A DNA stretch of 23,402 bases, taken from assembly GCA_044869275.1 (NCBI GenBank), contig JBIOXB010000100.1, positions 1 to 23,402 of the forward strand. The letters are read 5' to 3'. Below the pieces are notes generated by a model. It had not been told where the DNA came from. It ran no database searches and saw only the letters and a program-made list of their open reading frames with translations. Positions 5,764 through 23,312 of this stretch are shown here, piece after piece. Origin of the DNA: a bacterium (GTDB lineage: Bacteria > Zhuqueibacterota > Zhuqueibacteria > Zhuqueibacterales > Zhuqueibacteraceae). The first letter of the stretch is position 1; every line of letters begins with the position of its first letter. Position numbers and translations under genes: made by a program.

Positions 5764-6654
5764 ATGACAACCGCAATCGCATCTCCCGTAAAGCTCCCGA
5801 TCGCAAAATACAAAAGTTCGGTAGAGCCGGATTGGTGCCCGGGCTGCGGCGACTTTGGCGTGCTGCGCGCCTTACAGACCGGCCTCAGTGAATTGGGCAT
5901 TCATCCCAAGGATGTGCTGATTTCCTCGGGCATTGGCTGTTCTTCGAACCTGCCGGGATTCATTCACGCCTATGGCTTTCATGGCTTGCATGGCCGCGCG
6001 CTGCCGGTGGCGCAGGGCGCGAAGCTGGCCAACCCCGATTTGACCGTCATCATCACCGGCGGTGACGGCGACGGCTATGGCATTGGCGCCGGCCACTTTC
6101 TGCATGCCATGCGCCGCAATATCGATCTCACCTACATCGTGATGGACAACCAGATTTACGGTCTCACCGTTGGCCAGGCTTCGCCCACGAGCATGCGCGG
6201 TCACAAAACCAATTCCACGCCCTGGGGCAATCTCGAAATTCCCATCAATCCGATTGCGCTGGCATTGGTGAGCGGCGCCACGTTCGTGGCGCGAGGCTTT
6301 TCCGGCGAAGCCAAACAGCTCGCGCAGATCTTCCTGCAGGCGATCAGCCACAAAGGCTTTGCGTTGGTGGATGTATTCAGCCCGTGCGTGACGTACAACA
6401 AGATCAATACTTATGCCTGGTTCAAGGAGCGGGTTTACAAGCTCGAGGAACGCAAACACGACACTTCCGATTTCAAGCTCGCGCTGGAGACCGCGTGGCA
6501 ATGGGGCAATGAGATTCCGATCGGGGTTTTCTATCAAGCAGAGCAAGAAAGGTATGAAGCGCTCGACGTCGGACTCAAGCAGGGGCCACTGGTGAAGCGC
6601 AAACTGGGGATGAGCAATGCTGCGGGGAGGGAATTGTTGCGGGAATTTATGTAG
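5764..6654 (+). CDS. korB: 2-oxoacid:ferredoxin oxidoreductase beta subunit
   Basis: WCPGCGD, SGIGCS, HGLHGRA, TPP motif GGDGDG...DNQIYG, SPCVTYN; GAGGAGG SD before ATG 5764. Confidence 0.94.
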   Translation: MTTAIASPVKLPIAKYKSSVEPDWCPGCGDFGVLRALQTGLSELGIHPKDVLISSGIGCSSNLPGFIHAYGFHGLHGRALPVAQGAKLANPDLTVIITGGDGDGYGIGAGHFLHAMRRNIDLTYIVMDNQIYGLTVGQASPTSMRGHKTNSTPWGNLEIPINPIALALVSGATFVARGFSGEAKQLAQIFLQAISHKGFALVDVFSPCVTYNKINTYAWFKERVYKLEERKHDTSDFKLALETAWQWGNEIPIGVFYQAEQERYEALDVGLKQGPLVKRKLGMSNAAGRELLREFM

Positions 6655-6669: not shown

Positions 6670-6990
6670 TCAATGGGTTGCTTCATGGACCACTTTCCCT
6701 TCTGTCAGCGCCCAGTAAAGCGTGGTGCTGGGCAGGTGACCCCATTCATCGATTTCCGCCTTTGAAGCCACCAGCACATCGACTGGAATTCGCAAGGGAC
6801 GCAGCACCCTTCGCAAGCGCACCATTTCCTGGTGCTTGTTTGTCAAAGTCGGAAAGATCACCAAAAAATCCAGATCGGAATCCTCGCCCGCTTCACCTCG
6901 AGCATAAGATCCAAACAGTATGATCTTGGCTGGATGGGCCGATGCAGTGAGCTATTGCACGGCTTGTTCGATGGTTTGTTGTGTGATCAT
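6670..6990 (-). pseudogene. Minimal nucleotidyltransferase (MNT antitoxin-like) with a premature amber stop
   Basis: Frame from ATG 6990 reads MITQQTIEQAVQ*LTASAHPAKIILFGSYARGEAGEDSDLDFLVI...VDVLV...EGKVVHE (GS...DxD motif); TAG at 6952-6954. Confidence 0.85.
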
Positions 6991-7217
6991 ATGATTAAAC
7001 CCTTCCTGGAAGCTACATAGCTTTACTCGAAAAGGCAAGCTGAGTTCGCGCTGGCATCTTCATCCTTTGAGGTGTTTCTACTTTTTCAACCGGTCATCCA
7101 CATCGATCCGCTTGTCATTTTTTGCAGCTTCGCCACACGAATTTCTCACCTTCAAGAATCTGCACGAATTCCATATGTAGAAGGGGGGTTATCTCCTTGA
7201 TTCTGTACGCGTGTTCT

Positions 7218-7233
7218 TGGCATGGCCCTTGTA
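7218..7233 (+). promoter_or_regulatory. Putative sigma54 (-24/-12) promoter of the kinase-protease-regulator operon
   Basis: TGGCATGGCCCTTGTA versus consensus TGGCACGNNNNTTGCW; -12 is GT instead of GC. Confidence 0.6.
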
Positions 7234-7324: not shown

Positions 7325-8959
7325 ATGAAACTCCTGCCGCAAAAACTGGCTGTGAAGCTCATTCTCTCGCTGACGATCATCATCGCGCTGCTGGAAGGGA
7401 TTTCGGGTTTCCTCGGCTTGCAGAATCAGCAACGCCAGCTGCTGCAGGCCATGATCATCGGTGCCGATCAGCTCTCGAAAAGCATCACCAGCGCTACCTG
7501 GCACTCGATGCTGGCTGATCACCGTGCGGCGGCTTATGAGATGATGCAAACCATTGCCTTGAAGCAGGGCATCAGGCGCATTCGTATTTTCAACAAAGAA
7601 GGCCGGGTGATGTTCTCCACCATGCCGGGCGAGGCGATGCAGGTGAACAAATACGCCGAGGCGTGCTACTTTTGCCACGCCAGCGCCGAGCCGCGGGTCA
7701 AAGTGGATGTGCCCTCGCGTGCGCGCATTTTCAGCGGTGCGGATGGCCGCCGCCAACTGGCCATGGTCACCCCCATTTATAATGAACCGGCGTGCAGCCA
7801 GGCTGCGTGCCACGCGCATCCGAGAGATGTGAAAGTGCTCGGCGTGCTGGATGTGGCGCTGGATTTGGAACCGGCGGATCGCGAGTTGGCCAAGGCGGAA
7901 TGGCGCATGGTGGTAGTCACGGCGGTTCATATCGCTCTCATCGCGCTGTTCATTGTTTTTTTCACGCGCTATTTTGTGAGCCGGCCGATCCAAAAACTAA
8001 TCGCGGGCACGCGCGCCGTGAGCGCCATGCAGCTCGATCAGCCCATAGCCATCGACTCCAGTGAAGAGCTGGCGGAACTGGCGCGTTCGTTCAACCTCAT
8101 GCGCGAGCGCCTGCAAGTGGCGATTTCCGAAACCAACCAATTCGCGCAGAGCCTGGAAACCAAAGTCATGGAGCGCACCGAACAGCTCAAAGTCGCGCAT
8201 CAAAAACTCCTGCAAAGCGACCGCCTGGCGTCGTTAGGCCAGCTCTCGGCCAGTGTGGCGCATGAGATCAACAATCCGCTTTCCGGCGTGCTCAATCTCT
8301 CCATGCTGATGCAACGCATTCTCCGCGAGGATGGCGTTCCGCTGTCGCGTTTGCCGGAATTTCGCAAATATCTCGGCCAAGTGGTGCATGAAACCTCGCG
8401 CGTCGGCAGGATTGTATCCGATTTGCTGGCCTTTTCGCGGCGCTCCAAGCCGCAGAGCACGCGCGCCGACCTGAACAACATCGTGAAAACCACGCTCTCG
8501 CTGTTGGCGCACAAATTAAAACTCAGCAACGTGGAAGTGGCGCTGCGGCTCGAAGAGAATTTGCCGCCGGTGCGTTGTGACAGCTCACAGATGCAACAAG
8601 TGGTGATCAACTTGGTCATGAATGGTGCAGAGGCGACGCAGGCGCGCGGCCAGGGGCAGGTGACCATCGCCACGCGCAGCCAGCCGAAGCAGCACAGTGT
8701 CATTTTGGAAGTGCAGGACAACGGCGAGGGCATTCCGCCGCAACAACTCACGAAAATCTTTGATCCGTTCTTCACGACCAAGGAAGAGGGCAAAGGCATC
8801 GGCCTCGGCTTGTCCGTTGTTTATGGCATCATCGAAGCGCACGGCGGCGACATCGAAGTGCAAAGCAAAGCGGGTGAGGGCGCACGCTTCATCGTAACCC
8901 TGCCGTTTTCCCAGGAGAATGGCGTCGCGGCCTCGCCGGCAAACGGGCCGCCCGCGTGA
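7325..8959 (+). CDS. Membrane sensor histidine kinase (NtrB-like) with a heme-c-motif periplasmic domain and HAMP
   Basis: Two TM helices flank a domain with CYFCH and CSQAACH; HAMP; H-box [10 protein letters not shown]-box [27 protein letters not shown]. Start uncertain (7325 preferred, 7247 possible). Confidence 0.93.
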
Positions 8960-9531
8960 AACCGATCTGCGTCGTTGCCGTGGGCGCCGTCGCCGAGGAG
9001 ATTCTGGTTAAAATCGAAATGTGCCTCATACGGCGCTTTGGCATTACGACACGGCGGCTGCCGCCGTTGCCCGAGCCGGTGCAGGCCTGGGAGGCGCAGC
9101 GCGCGCAATACAACGTCATTGCGGTCATGCGAGAATTGTTGGGAATCTGTCCGCCCAATGCCGCACGGCTGCTCGCGGTGACGGAAAAAGATTTGTTCAT
9201 CCCCATGCTGAGCTTTGTGTTCGGCCAGGCGCAATTAAATGGGTCGATTGCCATCGTTTCCCTGGCGCGTTTGCGGCAGGAATTCTACCAATTACCGGCC
9301 AGCGCCACATTGTTGCTGGCGCGCGCACTGAAGGAGTCCGTTCATGAAATGGGTCACACCTTCGGGTTGACGCATTGTTTGGATAAGAACTGTCCCATGT
9401 CGCTATCGACCAATATTCAACAAGTGGACGCCAAAGGCGAAATATTTTGCGCGAATTGCACGATTGTGCTGCGCGAGAGCCTGAATGCGCTGCCGCCCTC
9501 AGGGTTTTCACGTTTGGAGAAAAAAGAATGA
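8956..9531 (+). CDS. Archaemetzincin-family (M54) Zn metalloprotease
   Basis: HEMGHTFGLTHC...CPMS...FCANC (HExxHxxGxxH plus the Cys4 Zn site and Met-turn); FVFGQA; GTGA and ATGA overlaps with both neighbours. Confidence 0.9.
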   Translation: MKPICVVAVGAVAEEILVKIEMCLIRRFGITTRRLPPLPEPVQAWEAQRAQYNVIAVMRELLGICPPNAARLLAVTEKDLFIPMLSFVFGQAQLNGSIAIVSLARLRQEFYQLPASATLLLARALKESVHEMGHTFGLTHCLDKNCPMSLSTNIQQVDAKGEIFCANCTIVLRESLNALPPSGFSRLEKKE

Positions 9532-10886
9532 AGATGCCTTGGGAAATCTTGGTGGTGGATGATGAAGAAGTGATGCGCGAATCGCTGGCGGCGTGGCTGC
9601 GGGAAGACGGCTACGTCGTGGACACCGCCGCCTCCGGCGCCGAGGCCATTGCCAAGTCGCGCACGAAAGACTACGCCATTTACTTCGTCGATCTGAAGAT
9701 GCCGGGCGGCATGGACGGCATCGAAACCATGATGGAAATCCGCAAACTGCACGCCGACGCTGCGATCATCATCATTACCGCTTACGCCACAGTCGATACG
9801 GCCATCACCGCCATGAAAGAAGGCGCACAGGAGTACATCGTCAAGCCCTGTAACCCGAGCGAGATTTCTCTGCTGGTGAACCGCATCATTAAGGTCAAAA
9901 ACCTGCAGCGTGAGAATATCATTCTGCGCAAAAAGCTGACGCGGCAATATAGCTTTCACGACATCATCAGCAAACATCCCAAAATGCTCGACCTGTTTCA
10001 GCTCATTCGTGACATCGCGAGCTTGCGCAGCACCGCGCTCATTCACGGCGAGAGCGGCACCGGCAAAGAATTGATTGCGCGCGCCATACACTTTTCCGGC
10101 GACCGCGCCGGCAAGCCGTTTGTCGGCGTGTCCTGCGCGGCGCTGGCCGAAACCTTGTTGGAATCCGAACTCTTCGGCCACGAGAAAGGGGCATTCACCG
10201 GGGCGGTGGCGCAAAAAAAAGGGAAATTCGAACAGGCGGAAGGTGGCACGATTTTTTTGGATGAGATCGGCGACATTTCCCCCAAGCTGCAATTGGACTT
10301 GCTGCGCGTGTTGCAAGAACGCAGCTTTTATCGCGTGGGCGGCTCACAGGAAATCCACGTAGAAGTGCGCGTGATCGCGGCGACGCACGTCGATTTGCAG
10401 GAGGCGGTGCAGCACGGCCGTTTCCGCGATGACTTGTTCTATCGCCTCAATGTCATCAACATTCACATTCCGCCGCTGCGCGAGCGCCGCGAAGACATTC
10501 CGTTGCTGGCGCGCCATTTCCTCGAGCGGTTGACGCACGAGCTCAGCAAGGAAGTGGATGATCTCACCGAGAGCGCCTTGCGGCTGTTGCTGGATTATGA
10601 ATGGCCGGGCAATGTGCGCGAATTGGAAAACGCCGTCGAGCGCGCCATTGTGACCTGCCGCGCGCGGGTGCTCACGGATGATGATTTTGCTTTTTTGAAT
10701 CACCACAGACTCGAACGGCGCGAGTGGGCCGTGCCGGCCAACATGTCGCTCGCAGAGGTGGAAAAGCAGATGATCGCCGCGACCCTGCAGCGCACACAAG
10801 GCAACATCAAGGAAGCAGCGAGCATTCTAGGAATTGATCGTTCGACGATTTACGATCGCATCAAGAAGTACAATATCCCGCGTTGA
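9528..10886 (+). CDS. Sigma54-dependent Fis-family response regulator (NtrC/AtoC/ZraR-like)
   Basis: Receiver (VVDDE, DLKMP, TAY, KP), Walker A GESGTGKE, ESELFGHEKGAFTGA, FLDEI, WPGNVREL, C-terminal HTH. Confidence 0.96.
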   Translation: MKMPWEILVVDDEEVMRESLAAWLREDGYVVDTAASGAEAIAKSRTKDYAIYFVDLKMPGGMDGIETMMEIRKLHADAAIIIITAYATVDTAITAMKEGAQEYIVKPCNPSEISLLVNRIIKVKNLQRENIILRKKLTRQYSFHDIISKHPKMLDLFQLIRDIASLRSTALIHGESGTGKELIARAIHFSGDRAGKPFVGVSCAALAETLLESELFGHEKGAFTGAVAQKKGKFEQAEGGTIFLDEIGDISPKLQLDLLRVLQERSFYRVGGSQEIHVEVRVIAATHVDLQEAVQHGRFRDDLFYRLNVINIHIPPLRERREDIPLLARHFLERLTHELSKEVDDLTESALRLLLDYEWPGNVRELENAVERAIVTCRARVLTDDDFAFLNHHRLERREWAVPANMSLAEVEKQMIAATLQRTQGNIKEAASILGIDRSTIYDRIKKYNIPR

Positions 10887-11071: not shown

Positions 11072-11908
11072 TCACGGCTCCAAAAAGAGATCACCCAACA
11101 CCGCGTCCCACTTTGCTTCAGGATTTTCCCTGGTGATATCCTCCACTGGCACACCACCATCCGCGAGCATGGGCCCCACGCCGGCGGGCGCCAGGGACAA
11201 TTGCAGCCGTTCCATTTCCCGCAACAGCCACGGCCGGATTTCCGCGCCGCGCAGCAGATGGCGCAAGTCCGCGCCAGGTTTGCAAGGGCGCACGCGCAAA
11301 TACCAGCCCTTATCCGGGCCGCCGGTGGCAACCACTTCGCCCTCCACCGGCGCGAGGATGCGCAACCGCTGCTTTTGTTTGAGCAGGTGCCAGCCCGCGC
11401 CGTTCACGTGTACCTGCGTGCCCAGCGCCGGCAGATCCACACCATCCGGTTTGCCGATCACGCGCGTGCTAAAATCATCAAGGCCCACGGTGAACGTGCC
11501 ATCCGCTTCGGGCCGCGCCCAGGAATGGCCGCGGTGATAAAAACGATCGAGCGGCATGTGCAGGCCGAAAATCTCCTCCTCCTGTTCTCGGACTTGCGCA
11601 GCCGGAAGCGGTGCTTGTGCGAGAATTTTGCCATGCGTCGCACAAGTGCGGCAATCAAATCCGTGATCACACTTGCGCCGGGACACGGCGCCGCGCAGCT
11701 CGTGCCGGCAGGCGCGCACCGCCATGGGCAAATCCTCGAAACCGGCATGCCACATGATTTCGTCTTGTTCCTGAGTTTTGAAATCTCTACGGGCATTGAG
11801 CAGCGCGCGCACCAGCGTAACGGCGATTACAAGCACGACGCCGTAGAAAATGCCCAGAAAGATCACATGTCCGGCATCCCAACGGAAACCATGCGCCCAA
11901 GGTAACAT
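11072..11908 (-). CDS. Membrane-anchored GcvH-like (lipoyl-fold) protein with a Cys4 domain
   Basis: N-terminal TM helix; C-x12-C-x5-C-x2-C; FYHRGHSWAR...VGLDDF...APVEGEVV...GWY; GGAGG SD before ATG 11908. Confidence 0.8.
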   Translation of the reverse strand: MLPWAHGFRWDAGHVIFLGIFYGVVLVIAVTLVRALLNARRDFKTQEQDEIMWHAGFEDLPMAVRACRHELRGAVSRRKCDHGFDCRTCATHGKILAQAPLPAAQVREQEEEIFGLHMPLDRFYHRGHSWARPEADGTFTVGLDDFSTRVIGKPDGVDLPALGTQVHVNGAGWHLLKQKQRLRILAPVEGEVVATGGPDKGWYLRVRPCKPGADLRHLLRGAEIRPWLLREMERLQLSLAPAGVGPMLADGGVPVEDITRENPEAKWDAVLGDLFLEP

Positions 11909-12023
11909 GTTGAACCTCCACAATTATGCTATGCTGGCCTGGTGCTGCCAGTTCGCGGCAAAAACTTCTTTAACCAGTCGTTGAGAAATCAGTTCACAAA
12001 CTCCGTGCACAGTCGCACGCTTG

Positions 12024-13265
12024 CTAATCCCAGCGCGTGTAGCTCAATTCCCTTTCCTGCGGGAAAAGGGTGAGATAGCGAAACGAGAAGGAGTACAGCA
12101 AAACACCGTAGGCCACCACGGCCAGAAAGGTGGCGATCTCCTGCCAGCTCGGAATATAAGAGAGAAACTCATCGAACGGCAGCGTGGGCAAGGCCAGCGT
12201 TTGAATCGTCATCACAAAACGATTCAAGGCCACGCCGGCGCAGGCCAAAAACGCGGCGCTCACCAGCCAGGATATGCCTAGCTGCCGGCGTTGGTTGAGC
12301 AGCATTAACGCCGGCAACAGACCCAGCAGCACGATCTCTGTAAACAAGATCCACGAGCCGAATTCCTTGCGGGCATAATACTCAAACGCCGGAAAACCCG
12401 CGCCCGGCGAAGTATTGTTGATCCAGATGAAGGTATCGACCGCCTTGAACAGCACATACACAATCAACAACGCCCCGGAGATTTTTCCCAACAAACGAAA
12501 CACCTCCGGTTTCACCAAAGTTTTCTTCGAGAGTTTTGACACCAGCCAGGTGGTCAATAAGACGAAACTCGGCCCCACAGCCGCGGCGGACAAAATAAAA
12601 AGGAAAAAGGTCGAAGGCCAGATGCCGAGCGCTTCCCGGAACGCGAACGGGCGGCCGCGTAGCACGCCGTACAATCCGCCTAGCGAGCCTTGGTGAAAGA
12701 AGGACAAAAACGTGCCCACGCCGGCGAACACGTACATGAATTTATGCAGCTCGAATTCAAGCACTAAAAACGCGGGAATCTGCCGGATTCTGCGATTCTT
12801 CAACACGATGGGCGCGTATTCAATCGCGAGCACGAGCAAATAACAAGTCAAACAGAAGGTCACTTCCGTGAGCATCGAATGCACGTTGGGATGCCAAAAC
12901 GTGAACCAGGCGCGCAGCGGCTGGCCCACGTCCACCATGAGCACGGCAATGGCGCCGCTGTAGCAAATGAATCCCAACACCACTGCACTGTTGATGACGG
13001 CCTTCAATTCATCGCGGCGCAGGAGATACAGCAAAAAACCGGTGAAAAACGCGCCCGCGCCCAGCGCGATCACCGTAAGATCGAGGTAAATCCACAAACC
13101 GAACGCGAAGCGATTGTCCATGTTGGTTTGATTCAAGCCCACCGCGAAGCACAAGTAAGTCGCGTACAGCCCCACCAAGAGCAGCGCGGCCCAGGGCAAA
13201 ATCCACAACACGAATTTCCAGAACGGGCTGCGCTGCAGGCCGCGTGCGATGAGATGCTTATCCAA
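12024..13265 (-). CDS. NrfD/PsrC-family quinone-interacting membrane subunit (QrcD/ActC-like)
   Basis: FGLWIYLDL..IALGAG, DVGQPLRAW, HQGSLGGLYG, NRFVMT, YIPSWQE; highly hydrophobic. Confidence 0.92.
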   Translation of the reverse strand: MDKHLIARGLQRSPFWKFVLWILPWAALLLVGLYATYLCFAVGLNQTNMDNRFAFGLWIYLDLTVIALGAGAFFTGFLLYLLRRDELKAVINSAVVLGFICYSGAIAVLMVDVGQPLRAWFTFWHPNVHSMLTEVTFCLTCYLLVLAIEYAPIVLKNRRIRQIPAFLVLEFELHKFMYVFAGVGTFLSFFHQGSLGGLYGVLRGRPFAFREALGIWPSTFFLFILSAAAVGPSFVLLTTWLVSKLSKKTLVKPEVFRLLGKISGALLIVYVLFKAVDTFIWINNTSPGAGFPAFEYYARKEFGSWILFTEIVLLGLLPALMLLNQRRQLGISWLVSAAFLACAGVALNRFVMTIQTLALPTLPFDEFLSYIPSWQEIATFLAVVAYGVLLYSFSFRYLTLFPQERELSYTRWD

Positions 13266-14031
13266 GAATCGCCTCCTTCCTGGTTCGCGCTAGACGGGCT
13301 TCGGCCAGGCGTTGCACCCATGGTTGCGTGGAATGATAGAAGACCTTGGGCGCAGTGCCCAGCCGCACCAAGAATTGAAACGTGTTCGGACTGCGCGCAA
13401 GTTTCGCAACGGCACTGTTTTCGTCGGCGAGATCGCCGAACACGATTGCGCCCTGTGGGCAGGCCTCGGCGCATGCTGGCACATATTCGTTCTCGTGCAC
13501 CTCGCGCCGGCCCTCGGCCGCGGCTTGCGCGCGCGCGGCTTGCAGGCGGCCGTGGCAAAAATTGCATTTCTCCACCACCCCGCGCATGCGTGGCGCAACG
13601 TCAGGGTTCAGCGTCTTTTCCATGCCGGCAGGCCATTCCGGGTCCCACCAATTGAAGTAGCGCGCGTGGTACGGGCATGCGGCCATGCAGTACCGGCACC
13701 CCAAACAGCGCACCGGCACCTGGGTCACGATGCCCGTGGCCTGATCCACTTCCACCGCGTTCTGCGGGCATACCGCGACGCATGGCGTTTCCTGCTCGCA
13801 TTGCTGACAGGGCATGGGCACAAATACGCTGCGGCTTTCCGGATGCTGCGTCCCGTTGTCAACTTTGAACACGCGCAGCCAGGTGATGCCGGTGCGGTCA
13901 CTGGCTTTGGGCTGTGCTGGCGGCACATTGTTTTCCACGGCACAGGCTACCATGCACGCGCCGCAGCCGTCGCAGCGATCGAGATCGATCACCATGCCGT
14001 AGCGGGATTTGCTGTTCTCGATTTTCTCCAT
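13258..14031 (-). CDS. 4Fe-4S dicluster electron-transfer subunit (QrcC/NrfC/DsrO-like)
   Basis: IDLDRCDGCGACMVAC, PCQQCEQETPCVAVCP, CLGCRYCMAACPY, VEKCNFC, PACAEACP. Confidence 0.94.
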   Translation of the reverse strand: MEKIENSKSRYGMVIDLDRCDGCGACMVACAVENNVPPAQPKASDRTGITWLRVFKVDNGTQHPESRSVFVPMPCQQCEQETPCVAVCPQNAVEVDQATGIVTQVPVRCLGCRYCMAACPYHARYFNWWDPEWPAGMEKTLNPDVAPRMRGVVEKCNFCHGRLQAARAQAAAEGRREVHENEYVPACAEACPQGAIVFGDLADENSAVAKLARSPNTFQFLVRLGTAPKVFYHSTQPWVQRLAEARLARTRKEAILG

Positions 14032-14033
14032 GG

Positions 14034-16244
14034 TCAAACCCTTGCGACCTTGGCCGGCGTCACGCGCCAAGAGCCATCTTCTTGCAGAGCGCACAAAGCC
14101 AGCACGTTTTCTTCCGTTCCATTCACGCCGGCGGCGCCGTTGGGCAATGGCGCCACCGCCACCTGCACTACGCCCGGCTGCACTGCAGCATCAAAGTGCA
14201 ATCGCACGCGCATCACCCCGGTCGAGGTCTGCAAACGTGCCGGACCCTCCTCCGCTATGCCGTGTGCGCGGGCAGTGTCAGGATTGATGAAAGCTTGATT
14301 CGCCGCTTCGCGCAGCTCAGATTCCTGGTAGATTTTGCTCAACAGTGGCGAAATCTGTCCGTTTCCCACGGCGCCACGCCAGCCAAATGGCATAAGAAGC
14401 AAAGAGGAGGCGGCCGGTGTTTGCGCTCGAACACTGGCATTGCCTTCGGCCGCTGCCAGCAGCCATTCATAGTTATTCTCGCCTTTTCCCAGCATGGAGA
14501 AACGCGGGAGCGGCGCGGGAGCGCTTTCCTGATCTTGCCAGCATGCACCTTGTGCGAACAATTCCCACAACTGCTCTCCTGATCCTATCGCACTCATATC
14601 CTGCCATTGCTTTTGTTCGAAAATAAAAACCTGGCCGCGGCCAGTTCGCTGTAACGCGGCCACGCGATTTTTGATCAGATCAGCGTGCGCCATGCCCGCC
14701 CAGTTCATGCCGAGGCCGGCGGCGAGACGATTCAAAAGCTCAACCGGTTCAACAGCACTCGCAGGCGGAGCCAGCAATGGAACCGAAATGCTGAACGAAG
14801 CGAGCGGGGCCGCGCTCGGCGTGGTGGCTTCCTGTAACGATTCAAAGGGCGCGGGCGCAGGAATGAGATAATCTGCATGCCGCGCCCAGCCGCTGCGAAA
14901 GGGTGACAGACTAATGACCAACGCGCGCTCCGGCACCAGCTTTCTCTCCAAAAGCGGCCACGGCATCGCGTAGCCGGATTCTGCTGCATCGATGATGAGA
15001 ACACGAATGGAATGATCCGGCATATCAGCGATTGCCGTGGCCGGCATAGTTGCGCAGTTACTGGCGATGTCGCCGAAAGGCACCTCTCGTCTAGGTACGA
15101 TCCCGCCTTTTTTGCCGACATTGCCGAGCAGTAGATTCAATCCCGCGATGGCGATTTCTGTGGCTGCGCCCAAGGGACCACCGCCGGGATCAGCACCGCC
15201 AATGGCGACGGCAGGGCCGCCTTGCGCCACTTGTCGAGCTGTGGAAATTATGCTGTCCACAGCAATGCCTGTGAGTTTTGCTGCGCGCTCCGGAGGAAAA
15301 GCCGCAACCAAATCGCAATATGAACGGCCGCCACCACACTGAAAATCACGTGACTGCCGCTGCAACGAATGGCGATCGCACAACTGCTCGCGCACGATCA
15401 CATGCGCCAAGCCCATTGCCAGCGCCGCCTCAGAACCGGGTTTGACCGGCAGCCAAGAGCTGCTTTGCAGTGCGGTGCGCGATTGGCGTGTTTCGATTTG
15501 AATAATTTGCAGACGTGCGCCGTTCGACTGTTGCAGTTGTGGGCGGCGCAAGTGGCTAATTCGGCCGGGTGTGTCCCAGCCGTCACAAATCGGTGCGCCA
15601 AAACTGAGTAGCGTGGCGGTGTTCTCCACGTCCACGCCGAGCGGGCCGCAAGGCGTTTCGAATAATTCCTGAAGTGCGGCAAGCGTGGCATCTTCCCGTC
15701 CGGGTGAAGTGAGATAAGCCGCCCGCGGAAACTGCGCAAGAAAATGCTGATACAACCGTGATATCGTGCGGCCTGGCCGTTCATCGAGCACCGCAACATA
15801 CCCATGATGTGCCGCGGCCATCTCCGCCAGAACATTTGCAATCCCAGCCGCGGCTTCGTCAATTGCCAGCGGGACCAACTGAATGTTGCCGTTTTTGCTC
15901 TCAAGCCGCAAGGGCTGCGCAGCGCGCAGAGGATGATAAGCGAGATGATGGCCTGCCAGTCCCATGGGGCACAACGCGCCGTGGCTTTGCGGATGCGCCG
16001 TGACTCCCGCCAAACTCACGGGTTGCGCACCCACGCAGCGCGCGCGCACGGCGCAACCCGCCGGACACAAGGTGCATACGCTAAAGCGCGTGCTGTGTTC
16101 GCCGTGCGGAGGCTCCCACGCTCCCTTTTGTGTCCAAATGGCAAGATCGTCCAGCACTTTCCAAGGCACCGGCGTGAACAACAAACCCAGCGCCGAACCA
16201 CCGGCCAGCTTCAAAAGATCCCGTCTTGTGATATTCATCGCCAT
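14034..16244 (-). CDS. Tat-exported molybdopterin-oxidoreductase-like subunit (QrcB/ActB-like)
   Basis: Tat motif TRRDLLK, WTQ, CTLCPAGC...LCPMG, PVKPGSEAALAMG, ADYLIPA, INPDTARAHGI. Confidence 0.88.
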   Translation of the reverse strand: MAMNITRRDLLKLAGGSALGLLFTPVPWKVLDDLAIWTQKGAWEPPHGEHSTRFSVCTLCPAGCAVRARCVGAQPVSLAGVTAHPQSHGALCPMGLAGHHLAYHPLRAAQPLRLESKNGNIQLVPLAIDEAAAGIANVLAEMAAAHHGYVAVLDERPGRTISRLYQHFLAQFPRAAYLTSPGREDATLAALQELFETPCGPLGVDVENTATLLSFGAPICDGWDTPGRISHLRRPQLQQSNGARLQIIQIETRQSRTALQSSSWLPVKPGSEAALAMGLAHVIVREQLCDRHSLQRQSRDFQCGGGRSYCDLVAAFPPERAAKLTGIAVDSIISTARQVAQGGPAVAIGGADPGGGPLGAATEIAIAGLNLLLGNVGKKGGIVPRREVPFGDIASNCATMPATAIADMPDHSIRVLIIDAAESGYAMPWPLLERKLVPERALVISLSPFRSGWARHADYLIPAPAPFESLQEATTPSAAPLASFSISVPLLAPPASAVEPVELLNRLAAGLGMNWAGMAHADLIKNRVAALQRTGRGQVFIFEQKQWQDMSAIGSGEQLWELFAQGACWQDQESAPAPLPRFSMLGKGENNYEWLLAAAEGNASVRAQTPAASSLLLMPFGWRGAVGNGQISPLLSKIYQESELREAANQAFINPDTARAHGIAEEGPARLQTSTGVMRVRLHFDAAVQPGVVQVAVAPLPNGAAGVNGTEENVLALCALQEDGSWRVTPAKVARV

Positions 16245-16255
16245 GACTCATGCTC

Positions 16256-16843
16256 TTATTTGTGACAGTCGAGGCAACCGGAATTCTTGCCGTGCTGCTG
16301 GTGGCAGCGCACACACTCGTCCATTTTCTTGCCATCCCAGGGCTGCCGGCGCAGCCGCGAAAGCGATTGGCCCCAAAGGTCGCGGCTGTAGCCGCTGATG
16401 CGATTCACTTGCAACGGTCGCAAGGTGTTGCTCGTGCCATGCGCGCCGTGGCATTGCGCACATTCGATTTCCGCGCGCTTGACGTGCTGAAGATGCGAGA
16501 AGTAAGCGTTGCCGGGCTGGCGTGAATAGACCAGCCAGGGAATCTCGCGATTGGGGACGACGTACTCTTCCACAAGTTTCTTTTCCGCTTCCGTCTCGCC
16601 CAACTGCGCGCTGTGGCACTCCGCGCATTTTGCCAAGGCAGGAATACCTTGAAAGCGTCCATTCGCTGCAAACGCATGGCAGTCGGCGCACGCCATCCCC
16701 ACGTTTTCGCCGGTGTGCACGCTGTGGCTGAATTGCAGCGGCTGCTCCACGCTGCGATAGAGTGCATGCGGAAAACCGAACCACCCCAACGCCAGGCCTG
16801 CGGCCAGGCCGGTCCAAAACAAAATTGTGCCTTTGCTGGTCAT
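16256..16843 (-). CDS. Membrane-anchored pentaheme cytochrome c (QrcA/ActA-like)
   Basis: TM anchor, QPLQFSHSVH, five CxxCH (CADCH, CAECH, CAQCH, CVRCH, CLDCH), YFSHLQH, MDEC. Confidence 0.93.
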   Translation of the reverse strand: MTSKGTILFWTGLAAGLALGWFGFPHALYRSVEQPLQFSHSVHTGENVGMACADCHAFAANGRFQGIPALAKCAECHSAQLGETEAEKKLVEEYVVPNREIPWLVYSRQPGNAYFSHLQHVKRAEIECAQCHGAHGTSNTLRPLQVNRISGYSRDLWGQSLSRLRRQPWDGKKMDECVRCHQQHGKNSGCLDCHK

Positions 16844-16845
16844 AC

Positions 16846-17802
16846 TCACTCTCTCCATCCGGCATGGGGCGAGAAAAACTCATTGAACAATTGCAGCACC
16901 TCCTCGCGGCTCAGCTGCTGCGCCAGACCCTGACAAAAAACTCCGCCATCGGCCAGCAGCGGCTGGTCCTGCAAAGTGAAGCGTGCGAGTTTTTCGTGTA
17001 CGAATTCAGAAATGCGCTGCACTTCGTGCTGCATCCAATCATGCGCCTCCCTGCCGCACCGCAGGCCGGCGGTCACCGCAGCATTGCCAACGCCCGGCGC
17101 TGATTTGTTTTCAGCGCCCTCGAAAAGCCAGCCCGAATTGTAAGGATCAGAGGTGAGTTTCTCGGGATGGCTGCGCAGCCACGCATTGGGGCGAAAGATG
17201 GCCAGGGCATTCGGAAACACCATTTGCAAATCCACGCCGCGCACGGTGAGCACGGCGGCAGGCCGGTTGACGCCTTTGGCGGTCACAAAGCTCAAGCCCT
17301 CCACGCTTCCCAGAACCGAGGCGAGAAAGGCGTCGATGCCGATGTGGTAGCTGCCCTCGGTGCCGCTGTCCAGCCACAGGTGATTGGCGGAATAGAGCAG
17401 ATGTTCGGGCAGCGGCAATGCTGCGCACGCCGGCATGGAACCTGCGCGTGCGTGATGATCGGCCGCGGCTTCGCTAGACGCAGAGACGTTGGCAAGTGCG
17501 GCGTAAAGCTCACAGTACCGATGATTCTCGCTACCGCAGCGCGACAATGATGGCTCGCTATAGGGAATAAACTTGATCTCGGCGGCAGCGGAGCAGTATT
17601 GCATCAACGCCTCGGAGAGAAACGGGCAATGGGCCTGGCTGGGAAAATCCTCGTGGCGCTGCTTCGCCGCCGTGCAATTGACGTGGTCGGGAGAGGAGCA
17701 CTTCTCGTGCTCCGTCTGCCCGAGCGCGCGCACGATCATCTTGCGAAACGGCGACGCCTGGCAGAATTTCACTTGCGCTTCTCGAAGAAAAGGGCATCTC
17801 AT
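16846..17802 (-). CDS. GcvH-like protein with a duplicated N-terminal Cys-rich repeat
   Basis: Two CPFL-x7-C...C-x4-H-x2-C repeats; LYSANHLWL...IGIDAF...PEKLTSDPYNSGWLF typical of H-protein. Confidence 0.8.
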   Translation of the reverse strand: MRCPFLREAQVKFCQASPFRKMIVRALGQTEHEKCSSPDHVNCTAAKQRHEDFPSQAHCPFLSEALMQYCSAAAEIKFIPYSEPSLSRCGSENHRYCELYAALANVSASSEAAADHHARAGSMPACAALPLPEHLLYSANHLWLDSGTEGSYHIGIDAFLASVLGSVEGLSFVTAKGVNRPAAVLTVRGVDLQMVFPNALAIFRPNAWLRSHPEKLTSDPYNSGWLFEGAENKSAPGVGNAAVTAGLRCGREAHDWMQHEVQRISEFVHEKLARFTLQDQPLLADGGVFCQGLAQQLSREEVLQLFNEFFSPHAGWRE

Positions 17803-17838
17803 GAGGCACTCCCGCGCGATTGCGCCGTGAGCTGAACG

Positions 17839-18129
17839 CTAATTTTCCGAACGCTGAATATGCGCATCTTCCTCGGGCGCAGGCGGCGCCGGCATGGCGG
17901 CCGGCTTGTCCAGCCGTTCGCCACCGTCCGCCATGGTAATGCCCAGCTCGGGAATCGCAAAAGCATGATCGTCCTGCGGCATCAAGGCCGGTACGCGTTT
18001 GCGTGCGCGCCGCAGCACTTCCTGCAACGCCACGCCGGCAACGGTCACGACACAGATCAAGGTGACCACGCCCAGCGCAATATTGGTGACATTCAACCAG
18101 AAGGTCTCTGGATCATCGATGATAAACAC
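17839..18129 (-). CDS. Small single-TM hypothetical protein with a LGITMADGGE motif
   Basis: AAGGAGG SD before GTG 18129; TM helix NIALGVVTLICVVTVAGVAL; first gene after the sigma54 promoter. Confidence 0.78.
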   Translation of the reverse strand: MFIIDDPETFWLNVTNIALGVVTLICVVTVAGVALQEVLRRARKRVPALMPQDDHAFAIPELGITMADGGERLDKPAAMPAPPAPEEDAHIQRSEN

Positions 18130-18186: not shown

Positions 18187-18202
18187 TACAAAGGATGTAC
18201 CA
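18187..18202 (-). promoter_or_regulatory. Putative sigma54 promoter of the GcvH-like/Qrc-like cluster
   Basis: Minus strand TGGTACATCCTTTGTA, about 58 nt upstream of the first start codon. Confidence 0.62.
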
Positions 18203-18659: not shown

Positions 18660-18688
18660 TTGACATTTTAAGCCTTTTCGTTTATATT
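18660..18688 (+). promoter_or_regulatory. Sigma70-type promoter of the cytochrome b operon
   Basis: TTGACA-N17-TATATT. Confidence 0.75.
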
Positions 18689-18752
18689 GCGCGGCATCAA
18701 GAAATCCTGCCTCATCAAACTTCGAGCGGTTCTTTCTAACAAAGGAGCGGTG

Positions 18753-19526
18753 ATGCGAGCGGTTCTCGACAAGATGCGGGACAACCTCATCAAATCCCCT
18801 GTCTGGAAATCGATGTTCCGGCACGATTACGAAGATTCGCAGCGTAATCGCCTGCTGCAAGTGCTCGACAATTTTTGGATGCATCTGCATCCCACCAAAC
18901 TGCCCCGCCACGGCACCTACATCCGCTTCACCTGGTGCATGGGCGGAATTACGTTTTTGCTGTTTTTGGTCACCGCGGTCACCGGCGTGTTGCTGATGTT
19001 CTACTACCGCCCCACCGCGGAGTACGCCTTTGCCGACATGAAGTATCTGCAATTCGACGTGCCCTTCGGTATGTTTCTGCGCAATATGCACCGCTGGGCC
19101 GCGCATGGCATGGTCATCGCCGTTTGGCTGCACATGTTTCGCGTCTTCCTCACCGGCTCTTACAAACCGCCGCGCGAATTCAACTGGGTCGTGGGTGTGA
19201 TCCTGTTGACGACGACGCTGCTGCTTTCTTTCACCGGCTATCTGCTGCCCTGGGATCAGCTTTCCATTTGGGCCGTGACCGTCGGCACCAATATGGCGCG
19301 CGCCACACCGCTGCTCGGTCATGAAGGCCCATTCGGCCCGCAATTGGGCATGCGGCCGGACAATGACGTTCGCTTCCTGTTGCTCGGTGGCACGCAAGTC
19401 GGCCCGCCGACCTTGCTGCGTTTCTACGTGCTCCACTGCATTTTCCTGCCGTTGTTTGCCGCCGTGTTTATCGGCGTGCACTTTTGGCGCGTGCGCAAAG
19501 ACGGAGGCATCTCCGGCCCGCTGTGA
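18753..19526 (+). CDS. Cytochrome b N-terminal part (cytochrome b6/QcrB-like, split type)
   Basis: [44 protein letters not shown]-x14-H, terminal GISGPL; AAGGAG SD. Confidence 0.94.
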
Positions 19527-19544
19527 TCGAAGTTGTGCTCGTTC

Positions 19545-19635
19545 AGATTTACAAATCAACCGGGCAGTTTACGTATTACGTTTTCATGCGGTATTTCCGT
19601 AAAATGTAACGCGTAATGCGTGTAAATCTTTTTTT
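19545..19635 (+). terminator. Nested hairpin followed by a T-tract; possible terminator or processing site
   Basis: AGATTTACA...TGTAAATCT outer stem, TTACGTATTACGTTTT/AAAATGTAACGCGTAA inner stem, then a T run. Confidence 0.4.
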
Positions 19636-19656
19636 GCTTTTTCGGAGCTGGAGTCT

Positions 19657-20538
19657 ATGGAGAATCTCAAGCATATCTTGAGCAATCCCGATAACGTTCC
19701 AGTTGTCGGTATGTTGTTTTTGATTACTTTTTACGTCTGGCTATGGTGGCGCCAAGCACGCCAAAACGACGCCCGTATTGCGGCCGGCGAATACAAGAAA
19801 ATGACTGAAGAGAACCAGGATCGCATTCACACCTGGCCGTATCTCACCCGCGTGGAATTTCTCGCCTCCATCATCCTGATGATCGTGTTAACGGTCTGGT
19901 CGATCGTGCTCGATGCCCCGCTGGAGGACCCGGCCAATCCCACGCGCACGCCCAATCCTTCCAAGGCGCCCTGGTACTTTCTCGGGCTGCAGGAAATGCT
20001 GGTGTATTTCGATCCCTGGATTGCCGGCGTGTTCCTGCCGACGCTGATCATCGTGGGCTTGATGGCGATTCCGTATATCGATCCCAACAAAAAGGGCAAC
20101 GGCTATTACACCTGGAATGAGCGCCCGTTCGCTCTCAGCGTTTTTCTGTTCGGTTTTTTGATTTTGTGGCTGTCGCTGATCATCATGGGCACGTTTTTAC
20201 GCGGCCCGGGCTGGAACTTCTTCGCGCCCTGGGAATTGTGGGACGTGCACAAAGTGGTGGCGATGAGCAACGTGGACATGCACGAATTCTTTGGCATCCG
20301 TTCCAAGCTCGGCGCGGGGATTTTCGGGTTCACCATCGTGGGCGCGTATTTTAGCTTGATTCCGGCCATTTGGTTCTGGAAAAAGAAAACTTGGAAAGTT
20401 CTGGAAGAGTTGGGGCCGCTGCGCTACGGCGTGACGGCGTTTCTCTTTTTCTCGATGATGGGCTTGCCCATCAAGATGATCATGCGGGTGGCATTCAACA
20501 TCAAATATATTTGGGTTACGCCATGGTTCAACGTGTGA
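19657..20538 (+). CDS. Cytochrome b C-terminal part / subunit IV-like (PetD/QcrC-like), extended
   Basis: TWPYL, APLEDPANPTRTPNPSKAPWYFLGLQE, IPYID, ERPF; extra TM helices; GGAG SD. Confidence 0.88.
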   Translation: MENLKHILSNPDNVPVVGMLFLITFYVWLWWRQARQNDARIAAGEYKKMTEENQDRIHTWPYLTRVEFLASIILMIVLTVWSIVLDAPLEDPANPTRTPNPSKAPWYFLGLQEMLVYFDPWIAGVFLPTLIIVGLMAIPYIDPNKKGNGYYTWNERPFALSVFLFGFLILWLSLIIMGTFLRGPGWNFFAPWELWDVHKVVAMSNVDMHEFFGIRSKLGAGIFGFTIVGAYFSLIPAIWFWKKKTWKVLEELGPLRYGVTAFLFFSMMGLPIKMIMRVAFNIKYIWVTPWFNV

Positions 20539-20687
20539 GTTTGGCCCTGCTATAGGACTGGCCATGCTCCAGGAATCTGCTTATGGTCTTGCCCGTACGC
20601 CAAAAGATTTCCGCGGCATGGCATTGAAAACTCGAAGTGTTTCCAAAGAAAAATGCGACCTCTGTGACGACCCGAAAGGAACAAGCC

Positions 20688-23312
20688 TTGGCCAAGCGAT
20701 CCGACACTCCGATTGAAGAACGTGATTACAGCCACATGTATTTCATTTGCAGCGCGTTGCTGGCGTTGACCACCTTCTGGGCGGTATTCGACATGATTTG
20801 GGTGCGCTCGCCCTGGCAACGCACGCAGCAGGAATTCAATCAGCTCGAAAAGAACGATCTGGTCGCCGCGCGTGATGAAAAACTGGCCGCCATCGATCCA
20901 GCGGCTTACCAACAACTGCGAGCGGACCTGGCAGCAGCAATCAAGGAGCTCGACAGCGCCGATTACAAACAAGCGCTGCAGGATTCGGCCAAAGCCGCGG
21001 TGGAAATCGCCAAAGCCGTGCAGCAATATCGTTTCACCAAGAGCGAGGCCGATGCGGAGTATTATCTCTTCAAGGAAGCGCAGTACCATAACGAGAAATC
21101 CGGCTATGAGAAACACGGCAAAAAATATGAGAGCTTGACCTCGCGAGCTGCCGAGCTCAAGCAAAAATGGGATGAGGCCGCAGCGCACAAAGCTAAAGTG
21201 TTGCAGCGGCTGGCCGGCTATCGTCAAAAAGTCACCGATCTGCAAGCGCAATTGGAGGCGATGACCAAGGAAGTGGATGAGCTCAATTTTCGCATCGATC
21301 GCATCGACCAGCGCAGGATCAAAATTCAACAAGTGGTGATGCCGGAATTCGTCAAGAACAATTTTGGCGCCTTCATCAATAACGTCGATCGTTGCCACAC
21401 CTGCCACACCTCCGCCACGCGCAAAGGCTTTGAGCATCTGGAGAATCCCCACAAAACGCACACCTCCTTGGACACCTTGCTGCGCCTGCATCCGGTGGAC
21501 AAATTTGGCTGCACGCCCTGCCACGACGGCCAGGGTCCGGCACTGCAAAACGCCGATCACGCGCACGGGGAAGTCAAACACTGGGAACATCCGCTGCTGC
21601 GCGGCGAGTTTGCGTACGCCGGCTGCAACAAGTGCCACGCCAAGGAATTGCGCCTCGCGCACGCGCCGAGCTTGAACCGCTCCAAGCGCATGCTGGTGGA
21701 TTTGGGTTGTTACGGCTGCCATGAAATTCGCGGATATGAAACCGCGGAACGCATCGGCCCGGACCTCAGCCGCGTCGGCCAAAAGCTCACGCCGGCCTGG
21801 GTGTATGGCTGGTTGCGTGACAATCGCGAATTTCGGCCGCACACGCGCATGCCGAATGCGATGTACACCAAGGCCGAAGCCTCGGCGGCAACTGCCTATC
21901 TGTTCAGTGTTTCGAAAAGCGATTGGTCGCCGGTAACCATGAACGCGCGCGGCAGCGCGGCAAACGGCGAACGCCTGATTGCGACCGTGGGCTGCAAAGC
22001 CTGCCACGTGGTTACTCCAGAAGATCGCGAGCATCGCACCAACGGCTTGCCCTACGACATTGGCCCGGATCTCGGCACCGTCGCCAAGAAAGTCAATGAA
22101 GATTGGCTGTATGATTGGATCAAAAATCCCAAGCATTATTCGCCGCAAACGCGCATGCCGAGCTTGCGCTTGTCCGATCAAGAAGCGGCGGATATTGTCG
22201 CCTATTTGATGCAAATCGGCCGCCCAGCGCCGTTGCCGGAAAATTATACGCAGGAAATGCCGAATCTCAGCGATCCGGCTTTGATTGCGGAAGGCCGCGC
22301 GCTCGTGCGCAATTTCGGCTGTCACGGCTGCCACGTGATTCCCGGGATGGAACGCGAAGGGCGGGTCTCGGTCTCATTGAATGAATTCGGCGCCAAATTG
22401 CCAGATGAGCTTTTTTATGGCGACGCGCTGGCCAACGGTACCGTACCGCAAAAAACCTGGGAAGGTTGGGCCATTGGCAAGCTCAAAAACTCGCGCGCAT
22501 ACGCAACTGAAGCTGTGATCCAACGCATGCCGAATTACCAAATGGCGGATAGCGACGCCGTCAACCTGACGGTGCTGTTGCGCTCATGGGATGGCCGCGT
22601 GTTCGGCGAGCGTTATGTGAAGCCCTGGGGCGGCCGCGAAGAAAGCATTGAAAAGGGCCGTTTGCTCGTGCGCCAGCTCAATTGCACCGGCTGCCACATC
22701 ATCGAAGGCGAGGGCGGAGATATTCAACCGGCGCTGACCTCCGCTTTGATGAAAGAAGGTTTGGATGAAATCGCGGCCTCGGCTTATGCACCACCGAATT
22801 TGCTGGGTGAAGGCAAAAAGGTGCAAAGCGAATGGCTGTTCCGTTTCTTGAAGGAACCGACGACCGGCCGGATTCGCCCATGGCTGCGCTCGCGCATGCC
22901 GACTTTCGCACTGACGGACGAGGAGGCCAACTCGCTCATCAATTATTTCAAAGCCGAAGCCGACGAAACGCCGGGTTTCACCTTTTTGCCCGAGTTTCAA
23001 CTGACTGCCGAGCAGCGTTCTGGTGCGTCGAAGCTCACCGCGCGTGATTATTTCGCCTGCTTCTCCTGCCACCAACAGGGCGCGAAAAAGCCCGAGGGCC
23101 CGCCCGACGGCTGGGCGCCGGATTTGGCGATGGCGAAACAACGTCTCAATCCGAATTGGATCGCAGACTGGATTCGCGATCCGCAGAAACAGCTTCCCGG
23201 CACACGCATGCCCTCGTTCTACCCGGATTCATATCCCCCAGACGTTCTGAGTGGGGATCCGGAAAAACAGATTGTGGCATTGCGCAATTATTTGTTGAGC
23301 TTGGGAAACTGA
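20688..23312 (+). CDS. Membrane-anchored octaheme cytochrome c with a coiled-coil stalk
   Basis: Eight CxxCH (CHTCH, CTPCH, CNKCH, CYGCH, CKACH, CHGCH, CTGCH, CFSCH). TTG 20688 follows GAAGGA; GTG 20637 is an alternative start. Confidence 0.92.
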   Translation: MAKRSDTPIEERDYSHMYFICSALLALTTFWAVFDMIWVRSPWQRTQQEFNQLEKNDLVAARDEKLAAIDPAAYQQLRADLAAAIKELDSADYKQALQDSAKAAVEIAKAVQQYRFTKSEADAEYYLFKEAQYHNEKSGYEKHGKKYESLTSRAAELKQKWDEAAAHKAKVLQRLAGYRQKVTDLQAQLEAMTKEVDELNFRIDRIDQRRIKIQQVVMPEFVKNNFGAFINNVDRCHTCHTSATRKGFEHLENPHKTHTSLDTLLRLHPVDKFGCTPCHDGQGPALQNADHAHGEVKHWEHPLLRGEFAYAGCNKCHAKELRLAHAPSLNRSKRMLVDLGCYGCHEIRGYETAERIGPDLSRVGQKLTPAWVYGWLRDNREFRPHTRMPNAMYTKAEASAATAYLFSVSKSDWSPVTMNARGSAANGERLIATVGCKACHVVTPEDREHRTNGLPYDIGPDLGTVAKKVNEDWLYDWIKNPKHYSPQTRMPSLRLSDQEAADIVAYLMQIGRPAPLPENYTQEMPNLSDPALIAEGRALVRNFGCHGCHVIPGMEREGRVSVSLNEFGAKLPDELFYGDALANGTVPQKTWEGWAIGKLKNSRAYATEAVIQRMPNYQMADSDAVNLTVLLRSWDGRVFGERYVKPWGGREESIEKGRLLVRQLNCTGCHIIEGEGGDIQPALTSALMKEGLDEIAASAYAPPNLLGEGKKVQSEWLFRFLKEPTTGRIRPWLRSRMPTFALTDEEANSLINYFKAEADETPGFTFLPEFQLTAEQRSGASKLTARDYFACFSCHQQGAKKPEGPPDGWAPDLAMAKQRLNPNWIADWIRDPQKQLPGTRMPSFYPDSYPPDVLSGDPEKQIVALRNYLLSLGN

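Follow-up and report, generated by a model that had tools for sequence, protein, structure and literature searches.

Described relatives of the locus

Archaemetzincins (MEROPS family M54) are found in archaea, bacteria and vertebrates (AMZ1/2). The present analysis concerns an archaemetzincin (AMZ) and a short Asp-Gly-Gly motif carried by three proteins encoded near it, here called A, B and C, on a 23,402-nucleotide stretch of bacterial DNA (Zhuqueibacteraceae, assembly GCA_044869275.1, contig JBIOXB010000100.1). This stretch at its full length is referred to as the window. Sequence comparison and a complex model suggest that the motif, G-x-T-[ML]-[AQ]-D-G-[GA], is probably a recognition site for the cleft of the co-encoded AMZ.

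The window AMZ is of the same family as AfAmzA (4axq, 3zvs, 4a3w), MkAmzA (2x7m), 3lmc and AMZ-tk. The solved structures show an active site that is intact but occluded, and the natural substrates of archaemetzincins were unknown as of 2012 (PMC3427221). A literature search that covered few subscription papers found no natural substrate reported later than that. Activity of AMZ-tk on casein and FS-6 is given in PMC4681839. In contrast to the solved archaemetzincins, the window AMZ sits in a kinase/sigma-54 unit, and a candidate substrate motif is encoded next door. CarG, of the CarD-CarG pair of Myxococcus xanthus, likewise has an archaemetzincin fold and takes part in transcription control through protein binding (PMC3427221). 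It lacks the catalytic Glu and binds CarD, whereas the window AMZ keeps the Glu.

The H-protein fold of the glycine cleavage H-protein (PF01597), LbpA and GcvH-L is common to A and B. According to PMC6067878, LbpA proteins strictly keep the lipoyl Lys, while this column is unconserved in the relatives of A and B. These proteins add a transmembrane (TM) helix or a Cys-rich N-terminus and a DGG tail, and no match to a solved H-protein covers that tail. Four core genes of the window stand in the same order as in the QrcABCD menaquinone reductase of Desulfobacterota; compared with the latter, the operon has three extra motif-bearing genes and its own kinase-AMZ-regulator unit. BccR of Geobacter sulfurreducens, a sigma-54 activator, induces the neighbouring cbcBA as the redox potential falls (bioRxiv 10.1101/2021.04.15.440034). 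The likeness, a sigma-54 activator beside a quinone/cytochrome module, is an analogy for the regulator only, and the word "protease" is absent from the main text of that paper. The literature search retrieved no description of the DGG motif or of an AMZ linked to a two-component system. The motif, its carriers and the enzyme-substrate pairing appear undescribed in print, and the class of mechanism is familiar.

The features on which the argument rests are the following (aa, amino acids).
11072..11908, minus strand: protein A, 278 aa, with one TM helix, a Cys-rich stretch, a GcvH-like domain whose lipoyl lysine is not conserved, and DGG tail
16846..17802, minus strand: protein B, 318 aa, soluble, with Cys-rich N-terminus, GcvH-like domain and DGG tail
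17839..18129, minus strand: peptide C, 96 aa, GTG start after GGAGG, with single TM helix, basic residues, motif and variable tail
11153..11167, minus strand: motif LADGG of A, residues 248-252, in the loop connecting the last helix of the GcvH domain with the C-terminal ones
16942..16956, minus strand: motif LADGG of B, residues 283-287, of which only DGG is invariant in orthologues
17917..17973, minus strand: extended motif of C, residues 53-71 (DDHAF..LGITMADGGE), with MADGG at 17920-17934
8956..9531, plus strand: archaemetzincin (AMZ, M54) with intact HEMGHTFGLTHC and Cys4 site, the proposed motif reader
7325..8959, plus strand: membrane-bound sensor histidine kinase whose outer domain has CxxCH and CX4CH motifs
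9528..10886, plus strand: sigma-54 response regulator (NtrC/AtoC-type), from family matches

The motif in the three proteins

The original prediction, made from the letters alone, held that [LM]ADGG is shared by three accessory proteins at a similar distance from the C-terminus and independently of the GcvH fold. LADGG, LADGG and MADGG at 11153-11167, 16942-16956 and 17920-17934 were confirmed on the minus strand with differing codons, followed by 26 (A), 31 (B) and 26 (C) residues as claimed. These are the only matches to [LMIV]?ADGG in the six frames of the window. In the six frames of the whole genome, the pentamer occurred 27 times in 12,986,194 residues, five of the 27 being in sigma-54 activators. 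At this rate, a 96-aa protein would contain the pentamer by chance with a probability of about 2e-4, and A or B with one of 6-7e-4.

All three carriers hold the motif, but A and B are paralogous (BLASTP E 6e-6), with motifs at equivalent positions of the alignment, so that the independent contexts number two rather than three. The pentamer itself also had to be narrowed: it is present in the window, but the conserved unit is D-G-[GA], since B orthologues often read CDGG, NDGG or MDGG. The distance from the C-terminus is nearly always 26 residues in A orthologues and about 26-38 in B, but it varies in the relatives of C, where it ranges from 7 to 34 residues. A fixed distance as part of the signal was therefore rejected for C, and the likeness is incidental.

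Since C has no Pfam match and is modelled as one helix (residues 7-45) followed by coil containing the motif, the motif is independent of the GcvH fold, as had been claimed. Pfam, profile-profile comparison and the model gave no GcvH domain in C and no homology to the GcvH-like family beyond the motif, and the ESM Atlas returned unnamed clusters only. The profile-profile match of C to A spans 22 motif columns only (probability 82%). A matrix built from 187 distinct GcvH-like tail motifs placed A, C and B in ranks 1-3 among the open reading frames (ORFs) of the genome with 28.4, 22.3 and 19.9 bits (next ORF 18.6); circularity affects this ranking for A and B, though not for C. Apart from GcvH-like proteins and small TM peptides, no convincing further carrier was found in the genome or in the loci fetched for comparison (numbered L below, genomes G). 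ORFs with LADGG in L307-L315 were rejected as carriers, as they look like opposite-strand frames.

Conservation of the motif and its carriers

The motif is kept in the relatives of all three proteins. Among the relatives of A (best 120 of 843) the three positions are D in 115, G in 115 and G in 119, while the 74 B ORFs from 80 C loci and the window have them in 73, 72 and 73, preceded by C, A, N or M. In the best 120 of 374 relatives of C, L62, G63, M66, A67, D68, G69 and G70 are invariant, T65 occurs in 117 and the tail after the motif is unconserved. More distant representatives (best 150 of 601) keep DGG in 147 of 150; searches with C themselves score the motif and are biased towards it, although the N-terminal half aligns too. 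One alignment of C omitted three motif-less and 12 N-terminally extended matches and added five closer relatives, so that the invariant DGG seen in it is not taken as a count. LG-x-TMADGG is near-invariant in the C family, whose members otherwise share only about 30-65% identity. Divergent GcvH-like proteins share the consensus G-x-T-[ML]-[AQ]-D-G-G with an invariant core of D-G-[GA], the DGA variant coming from four Acidobacteriota loci.

At least two further kinds of small TM peptide carry the motif. Those of L122, L129 and L232 have an unrelated TM sequence and read LG[LF]TMADGGE. In those of L205 (ATMFDGG) and L282, L283 and L301 (FAQDGGE), the TM segments look by eye like those of TM-GcvH-like proteins, and such peptides may derive from loss of the GcvH domain. 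Co-variation of motif variants within a locus (1.21 vs 0.99 identical residues of 3, permutation p 0.007) was discarded, because a control position shows a like excess (0.88 vs 0.66), which points to shared ancestry.

Two side observations concern B. In its orthologues from L036-L078 (Acidobacteria), the motif reads PGCDGG with a Cys just before the Asp (30 of 74), which could make recognition redox-sensitive. Stand-alone Cys-rich proteins of about 120 aa, resembling the N-terminal Cys module of B without GcvH, are encoded at L327:3953-4318 and L334:7275-7640.

Co-occurrence of the motif with the archaemetzincin

The original prediction named the neighbouring archaemetzincin as a possible partner. 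Three findings support this: motif and AMZ co-occur in three lineages, the motif has decayed in a lineage from which AMZ is missing, and the complex model puts it in the AMZ cleft. In Acidobacteriota (251 genomes), all 52 genomes with a full-tail GcvH-like match have AMZ, in 43 of the 52 within 12 kb; over the whole sample AMZ occurs in 75 genomes. The tails of 49 of the 52 were read and all are DGG or DGA. The 20 receiver-fusion genomes of this phylum yielded no motif and one partial AMZ match.

In the window's own phylum (151 genomes, denominators including the two unpublished genomes G088 and G144), AMZ exceeded the cut-off in 37. DGG tails were read in 35 genomes, of which 32 have a regulator-adjacent AMZ, the GcvH-like matches considered being the best 150 of 320, with weak ones outside the scope. 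Three AMZ genomes (77-82% complete) yielded no DGG gene. No AMZ exceeded the cut-off in the 22 genomes whose reading gave receiver-fused GcvH-like genes but no DGG tail. In the class of G152 (151 genomes), the C family was found in 16 genomes, all 16 with AMZ, compared to 69 of 151 with AMZ overall. Where the C locus shows no flanking AMZ, the enzyme was present elsewhere in the genome in 15 of 15 tested.

Over the genome loci read, D-G-[GA] stands in the tail of 137 of 139 non-receiver GcvH-like proteins versus none of 64 receiver fusions, after one spurious ORF was dropped from the former and with a share of the latter having no tail at all. The own genome offers the same contrast: a TM-receiver-GcvH-like fusion (L111:11657-12844, G000:C92) lies by a kinase and NrfCD and has no DGG and no AMZ. 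Metagenome loci of the receiver-fusion type (best 80 of 573) contained no AMZ, though many of these loci are short; two of the fusions have an off-register DGG lacking the usual prefix. The motif system also accompanies HmcBC/NrfCD-type modules without QrcAB, and GcvH-like accessory proteins beside Qrc/Hmc-type complexes occur in Acidobacteriota, Bacteroidota/Ignavibacteria and the window's phylum.

Of the 139 proteins, the two without D-G-[GA] come from G105 (96% complete, 50 contigs) and G131 (74%). Their kinases (62/59%) and regulators (76%) are orthologous to those of AMZ locus L118, and the regulators nest inside the AMZ-linked regulator clade. Neither genome contains an AMZ, and receiver fusions were gained. 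The Cys-rich GcvH-like protein, 48/41% identical to the motif-bearing one, aligns end to end, but the motif position reads ILLDDMG and QAGDDGR and has decayed. As motif and AMZ were lost while kinase and regulator stayed, the motif follows AMZ rather than these two.

Two side observations were made on the arrangement of these systems. The L111-type sister system is widespread and often accompanied by a second receiver-GcvH protein, which has no tail and terminates in a conserved PC[SG]SD-like sequence. L237 (G011:C25) and L241 (G017:C157) have DGG, kinase and regulator without an adjacent AMZ, the AMZ linked to the two-component system being on another contig, which is consistent with AMZ acting in trans.

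Structure and location of the carriers

The AlphaFold2 model of A (mean predicted local distance difference test, pLDDT, 85.7) comprises a TM helix and an H-protein core (Foldseek E 8e-9 to 1onl). For B, the H-protein fold is indicated by a weak Pfam/NCBIfam match and by BLAST to A. In A the loop that joins helix 221-242 to the terminal helices contains the motif and has a pLDDT of 60-70, compared with 84-96 for the GcvH core. Given this low-confidence loop in A and the coil in C, the motif does not look like a buried turn in the models. The original prediction had named a buried turn or lack of conservation in homologues as possible refutations, and neither was borne out. Together with its spread over loci, the motif has the marks of a short linear motif: a conserved island in a flexible region, on unrelated carriers, travelling with the protease.

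The lipoyl-lysine column holds Lys in 13 motif-bearing proteins and Gly in 61. Window A has K179, but only 6 of 120 A relatives have Lys, and B has Arg. A and B are by sequence GcvH-like paralogues without a conserved lipoyl lysine, i.e. of the predicted non-lipoylated type. In A and C the TM helix has basic residues after it, and no TM helix is present in AMZ or B; from this pattern we infer that all four proteins face the cytoplasm and meet there.

The archaemetzincin and its modelled complex with C

The signature HExxHxxGxxHC-x4-C-x-M-x17-CxxC is complete in the window AMZ with HEMGHTFGLTHC, C146, M148, C165 and C168. Among 82 locus AMZs, H130, E131, H134, H140 and the four Cys are kept in all 82, and M148 in 75. 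The enzyme scored 145.8 against NF033823 (cut-off 145) and 103 against the non-proteolytic NF033824 (cut-off 250). Profile E-values to four solved archaemetzincin sequences were 4e-46 to 6e-39, and S1' residues E127 and K160 (AfAmzA E114 and K146) are kept, as is the Met-turn. By sequence the window AMZ is an archaemetzincin of the active type and a predicted peptidase. Its assignment as a CarG-type non-proteolytic archaemetzincin was rejected, given the Glu kept in 82 of 82 and the NF033824 score below cut-off. None of the four solved sequences found is titled as a substrate complex, but in 4AXQ a peptide from a crystal contact sits on the zinc. A second bacterial archaemetzincin type was also seen (L112, L114, L116, L121, L124, L125), always with the same downstream gene, starting "VGCCG".

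Co-folding had been proposed as a check and was performed with AMZ 1-180 (82-row alignment), C 38-80 (118 rows) and two zinc ions. The pair reached ipSAE scores of 0.88, 0.76 and 0.88 compared to 0.01 for the best of three controls, and 0.01 resulted when AMZ was swapped for an unrelated protein. The score mark is passed by 116 of 157 solved pairs and by 2 of 215 mismatched ones, a calibration that is only rough here because own alignments and ligand were used. The runs share at least 89% of contacts, with partner pLDDT of at least 59.

In the model, C residues 61-74 fill the AMZ cleft and contact residues 82-95, 127, 130-131, 134, 139-140 and 150-153, which map onto the bulge, edge strand, zinc ligands, catalytic Glu and S1' wall of AfAmzA (PMC3427221). 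The modelled peptide lies alongside the edge strand (AMZ 90-94) and passes across the zinc histidines; T65/M66 touch A92-L94 and H134/H140, and A67/D68 rest against V88-G90. This placement suggests a scissile bond between M/L and A/Q (M66-A67 in C), or alternatively between A/Q and D (A67-D68); it uses general metzincin geometry, and the listed contacts do not separate the two bonds.

Proposed mechanism

In the proposed mechanism, the AMZ cleft would read the short linear motif in A, B and C. A cut in A and B would release their last ~28-33 residues with the terminal helices, and loss of these helices would switch or turn over the two Qrc accessory proteins. C would act as a membrane tether for AMZ or as a competitor (decoy) once the operon is induced, and its competition would feed back on the kinase-AMZ-sigma-54 unit. 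C offers the best-conserved and longest contact segment, with the additional conserved contacts D53, H55, F57, L62 and G63. Because of these contacts and its disposable tail, C would fit a tether or decoy better than a productive substrate. If AMZ does recognize the motif, cutting is somewhat likelier than binding alone and is favoured because the catalytic Glu is invariant.

The absence of both motif and AMZ from receiver-fused relatives suggests phosphorylation as an alternative control of the same module, and we infer that receiver phosphorylation is the equivalent of the AMZ arm in those sister systems. A more specific scheme is offered only tentatively. D-G-[GA] may be a natural cleavage site and AMZ a third, proteolytic arm of a sigma-54 two-component system that senses haem. 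This arm would clip the terminal helices of non-lipoylated GcvH-like redox relays, would be titrated by small membrane decoys that arose several times, and would be replaced in sister systems by a phosphorylated receiver domain.

Several points weigh against recognition of the motif by AMZ, or against cutting. The genomes compared are kin, so that the counts overstate independence and the DGG systems may be one clade. The losses in G105 and G131 are one evolutionary event (sister regulators, support 92 in a quick tree), which also replaced neighbouring genes. Of the AMZ-positive Acidobacteriota, 23 of 75 have no tail match, and four of the 80 receiver-fusion metagenome loci hold DGG-type genes with no AMZ in the fetched stretch. 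G087 (98% complete, 700 contigs) and G111 (85%, 560 contigs) have intact motifs, and neither an AMZ other than the unrelated second type nor an orthologous regulator was found there; this second type has no kinase, regulator or DGG neighbours. G116 has a DGG tail and no AMZ match, but its kinase gene runs off the contig end, and the unpublished G144 has a strong A-type match (at match level only) and no AMZ match. The residues before D vary widely (A, Q, N, C, M, P), a diversity that fits poorly with the small closed S1' pocket of AfAmzA, and the solved archaeal archaemetzincins were inactive on all substrates assayed (PMC3427221). As to the model, the three controls include no scrambled or D-to-A peptide, and the partners exclude kinase, regulator, Qrc, GcvH and paralogous AMZ. 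Metzincin-peptide geometry is common among solved structures, and the pass may reflect likeness to these.

Alternative explanations

A somewhat unlikely alternative, itself a sub-case of AMZ recognition, is that AMZ binds the motif without cutting. The motif would then be an inhibitor or docking handle, possibly with its Asp on the zinc, and AMZ a CarG-like adaptor held at or released from the membrane. Precedents are CarG of Myxococcus, a non-proteolytic archaemetzincin in a transcription complex, and the malonate and citrate carboxylates that ligate the zinc and open the AfAmzA cleft (PMC3427221). D and the first G are the only invariant residues, and the unconserved tails of C, down to 6-7 residues, leave no obvious cleavage product. 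However, CarG has lost the catalytic Glu that locus AMZs keep as E131 in 82 of 82, and the model puts M66, not D68, beside H134/H140 (the listed contacts being protein-protein).

That the motif binds another partner (kinase, sigma-54 activator, a Qrc/NrfD subunit or a GcvH-like domain in trans), with AMZ merely a co-inherited operon gene, is distinctly unlikely. Kinase, regulator and NrfCD-type genes also travel with the motif, the co-occurrence counts are not phylogenetically independent, and the motif is intact in G087 and G111, where the AMZ type linked to the two-component system was not found. Set against this, the motif decayed where orthologous kinase, regulator and NrfCD stayed and AMZ is missing, and receiver-fusion systems have kinases, NrfCD and GcvH-like domains, yet no motif. 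The model, too, passes with AMZ but falls to 0.01 with an unrelated protein in its place.

It is well known that Asp-Gly readily forms succinimides and tight turns. The idea that the Asp-Gly is by itself a modified or structural site (isoaspartate/succinimide, metal/phosphate loop or tight beta-turn) without a dedicated protease would agree with D-G as the sole invariant part, but is very doubtful. The monomer models of A and C show the loop as coil of low confidence, and the fold does not need D-G, because receiver fusions keep the same terminal helix without it. AMZ is the only recurring modifying enzyme among the neighbour genes labelled (not all were), and its link would be left unexplained.

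Chance or descent, with A and B sharing the motif by ancestry and C an accident or a mimic of the sigma-54 AAA+ loop FE[LM]ADGGT, is suggested by the paralogy of A and B and the 5 of 27 six-frame matches in sigma-54 activators but can practically be set aside, since the near-invariant LG-x-TMADGG of the divergent C family and the further TM peptide kinds refute it at sequence level as regards conservation. AAA+ loop mimicry was rejected because conservation in AMZ-adjacent regulators is too low for the same site: exact [LM]ADGG occurs in 23 of 76 and D in 40 of 76, and the window regulator reads FEQAEGGT. As a separate observation, Asp in this loop before Walker B occurs in those 40 of 76 AMZ-adjacent regulators (L001-L150) versus 9 of 34 activators of the own genome, possibly by ancestry.

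The Qrc operon and flanking genes

A, B and C flank a QrcABCD-type operon, which converges on the kinase-AMZ-sigma-54 regulator unit and of which C is the first gene. The AMZ gene overlaps both the stop of the kinase gene and the start of the regulator gene. QrcA and QrcD pass the curated cut-offs; QrcB and QrcC are below them, yet Qrc is the best family for each. The remaining features are as follows.
16256..16858, minus strand: QrcA multihaem cytochrome c, above the NCBIfam cut-off
14034..16244, minus strand: QrcB-like molybdopterin-fold subunit, 262 bits vs cut-off 440
13258..14031, minus strand: QrcC-like Fe-S subunit, 358 bits vs cut-off 400
12024..13265, minus strand: QrcD/NrfD membrane subunit, above cut-off
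18187..18202, minus strand: candidate sigma-54 -24/-12 site upstream of C, weakly supported
7218..7233, plus strand: candidate sigma-54 -24/-12 site upstream of the kinase, consensus match only

A strict sigma-54 promoter pattern was found in 9 of 81 regions upstream of C versus 4 of 81 on the reverse strand, and a conserved promoter at this place was rejected as weak against that background. The outer domain of the kinase (7325-8959, plus strand) contains CYFCH and CSQAACH motifs, suggesting c-type haem sensing. Divergent from C, genes for cytochrome b6-like, PetD-like and 891-aa multihaem cytochrome c proteins follow at 18687-23312 (plus strand), and this bc-type module shares the intergenic region with the Qrc operon. 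No PetD-like or cytochrome c genes were seen beside C in 80 related loci. Upstream of the kinase, 3-6654 holds succinate dehydrogenase/fumarate reductase-like genes (minus strand) and 2-oxoacid:ferredoxin oxidoreductase alpha/beta genes (plus strand), named from their translations. Between oxidoreductase and kinase, short ORF remnants at 6670-7020 (minus strand) resemble a nucleotidyltransferase/HEPN-type pair by eye.

Meaning of the motif for orphan proteases and Qrc complexes

A candidate peptide with a likely scissile bond makes the substrate question of this orphan protease testable. The motif also offers a starting point for studying the so far undescribed GcvH-like accessory proteins of Qrc/Hmc-type respiratory complexes.

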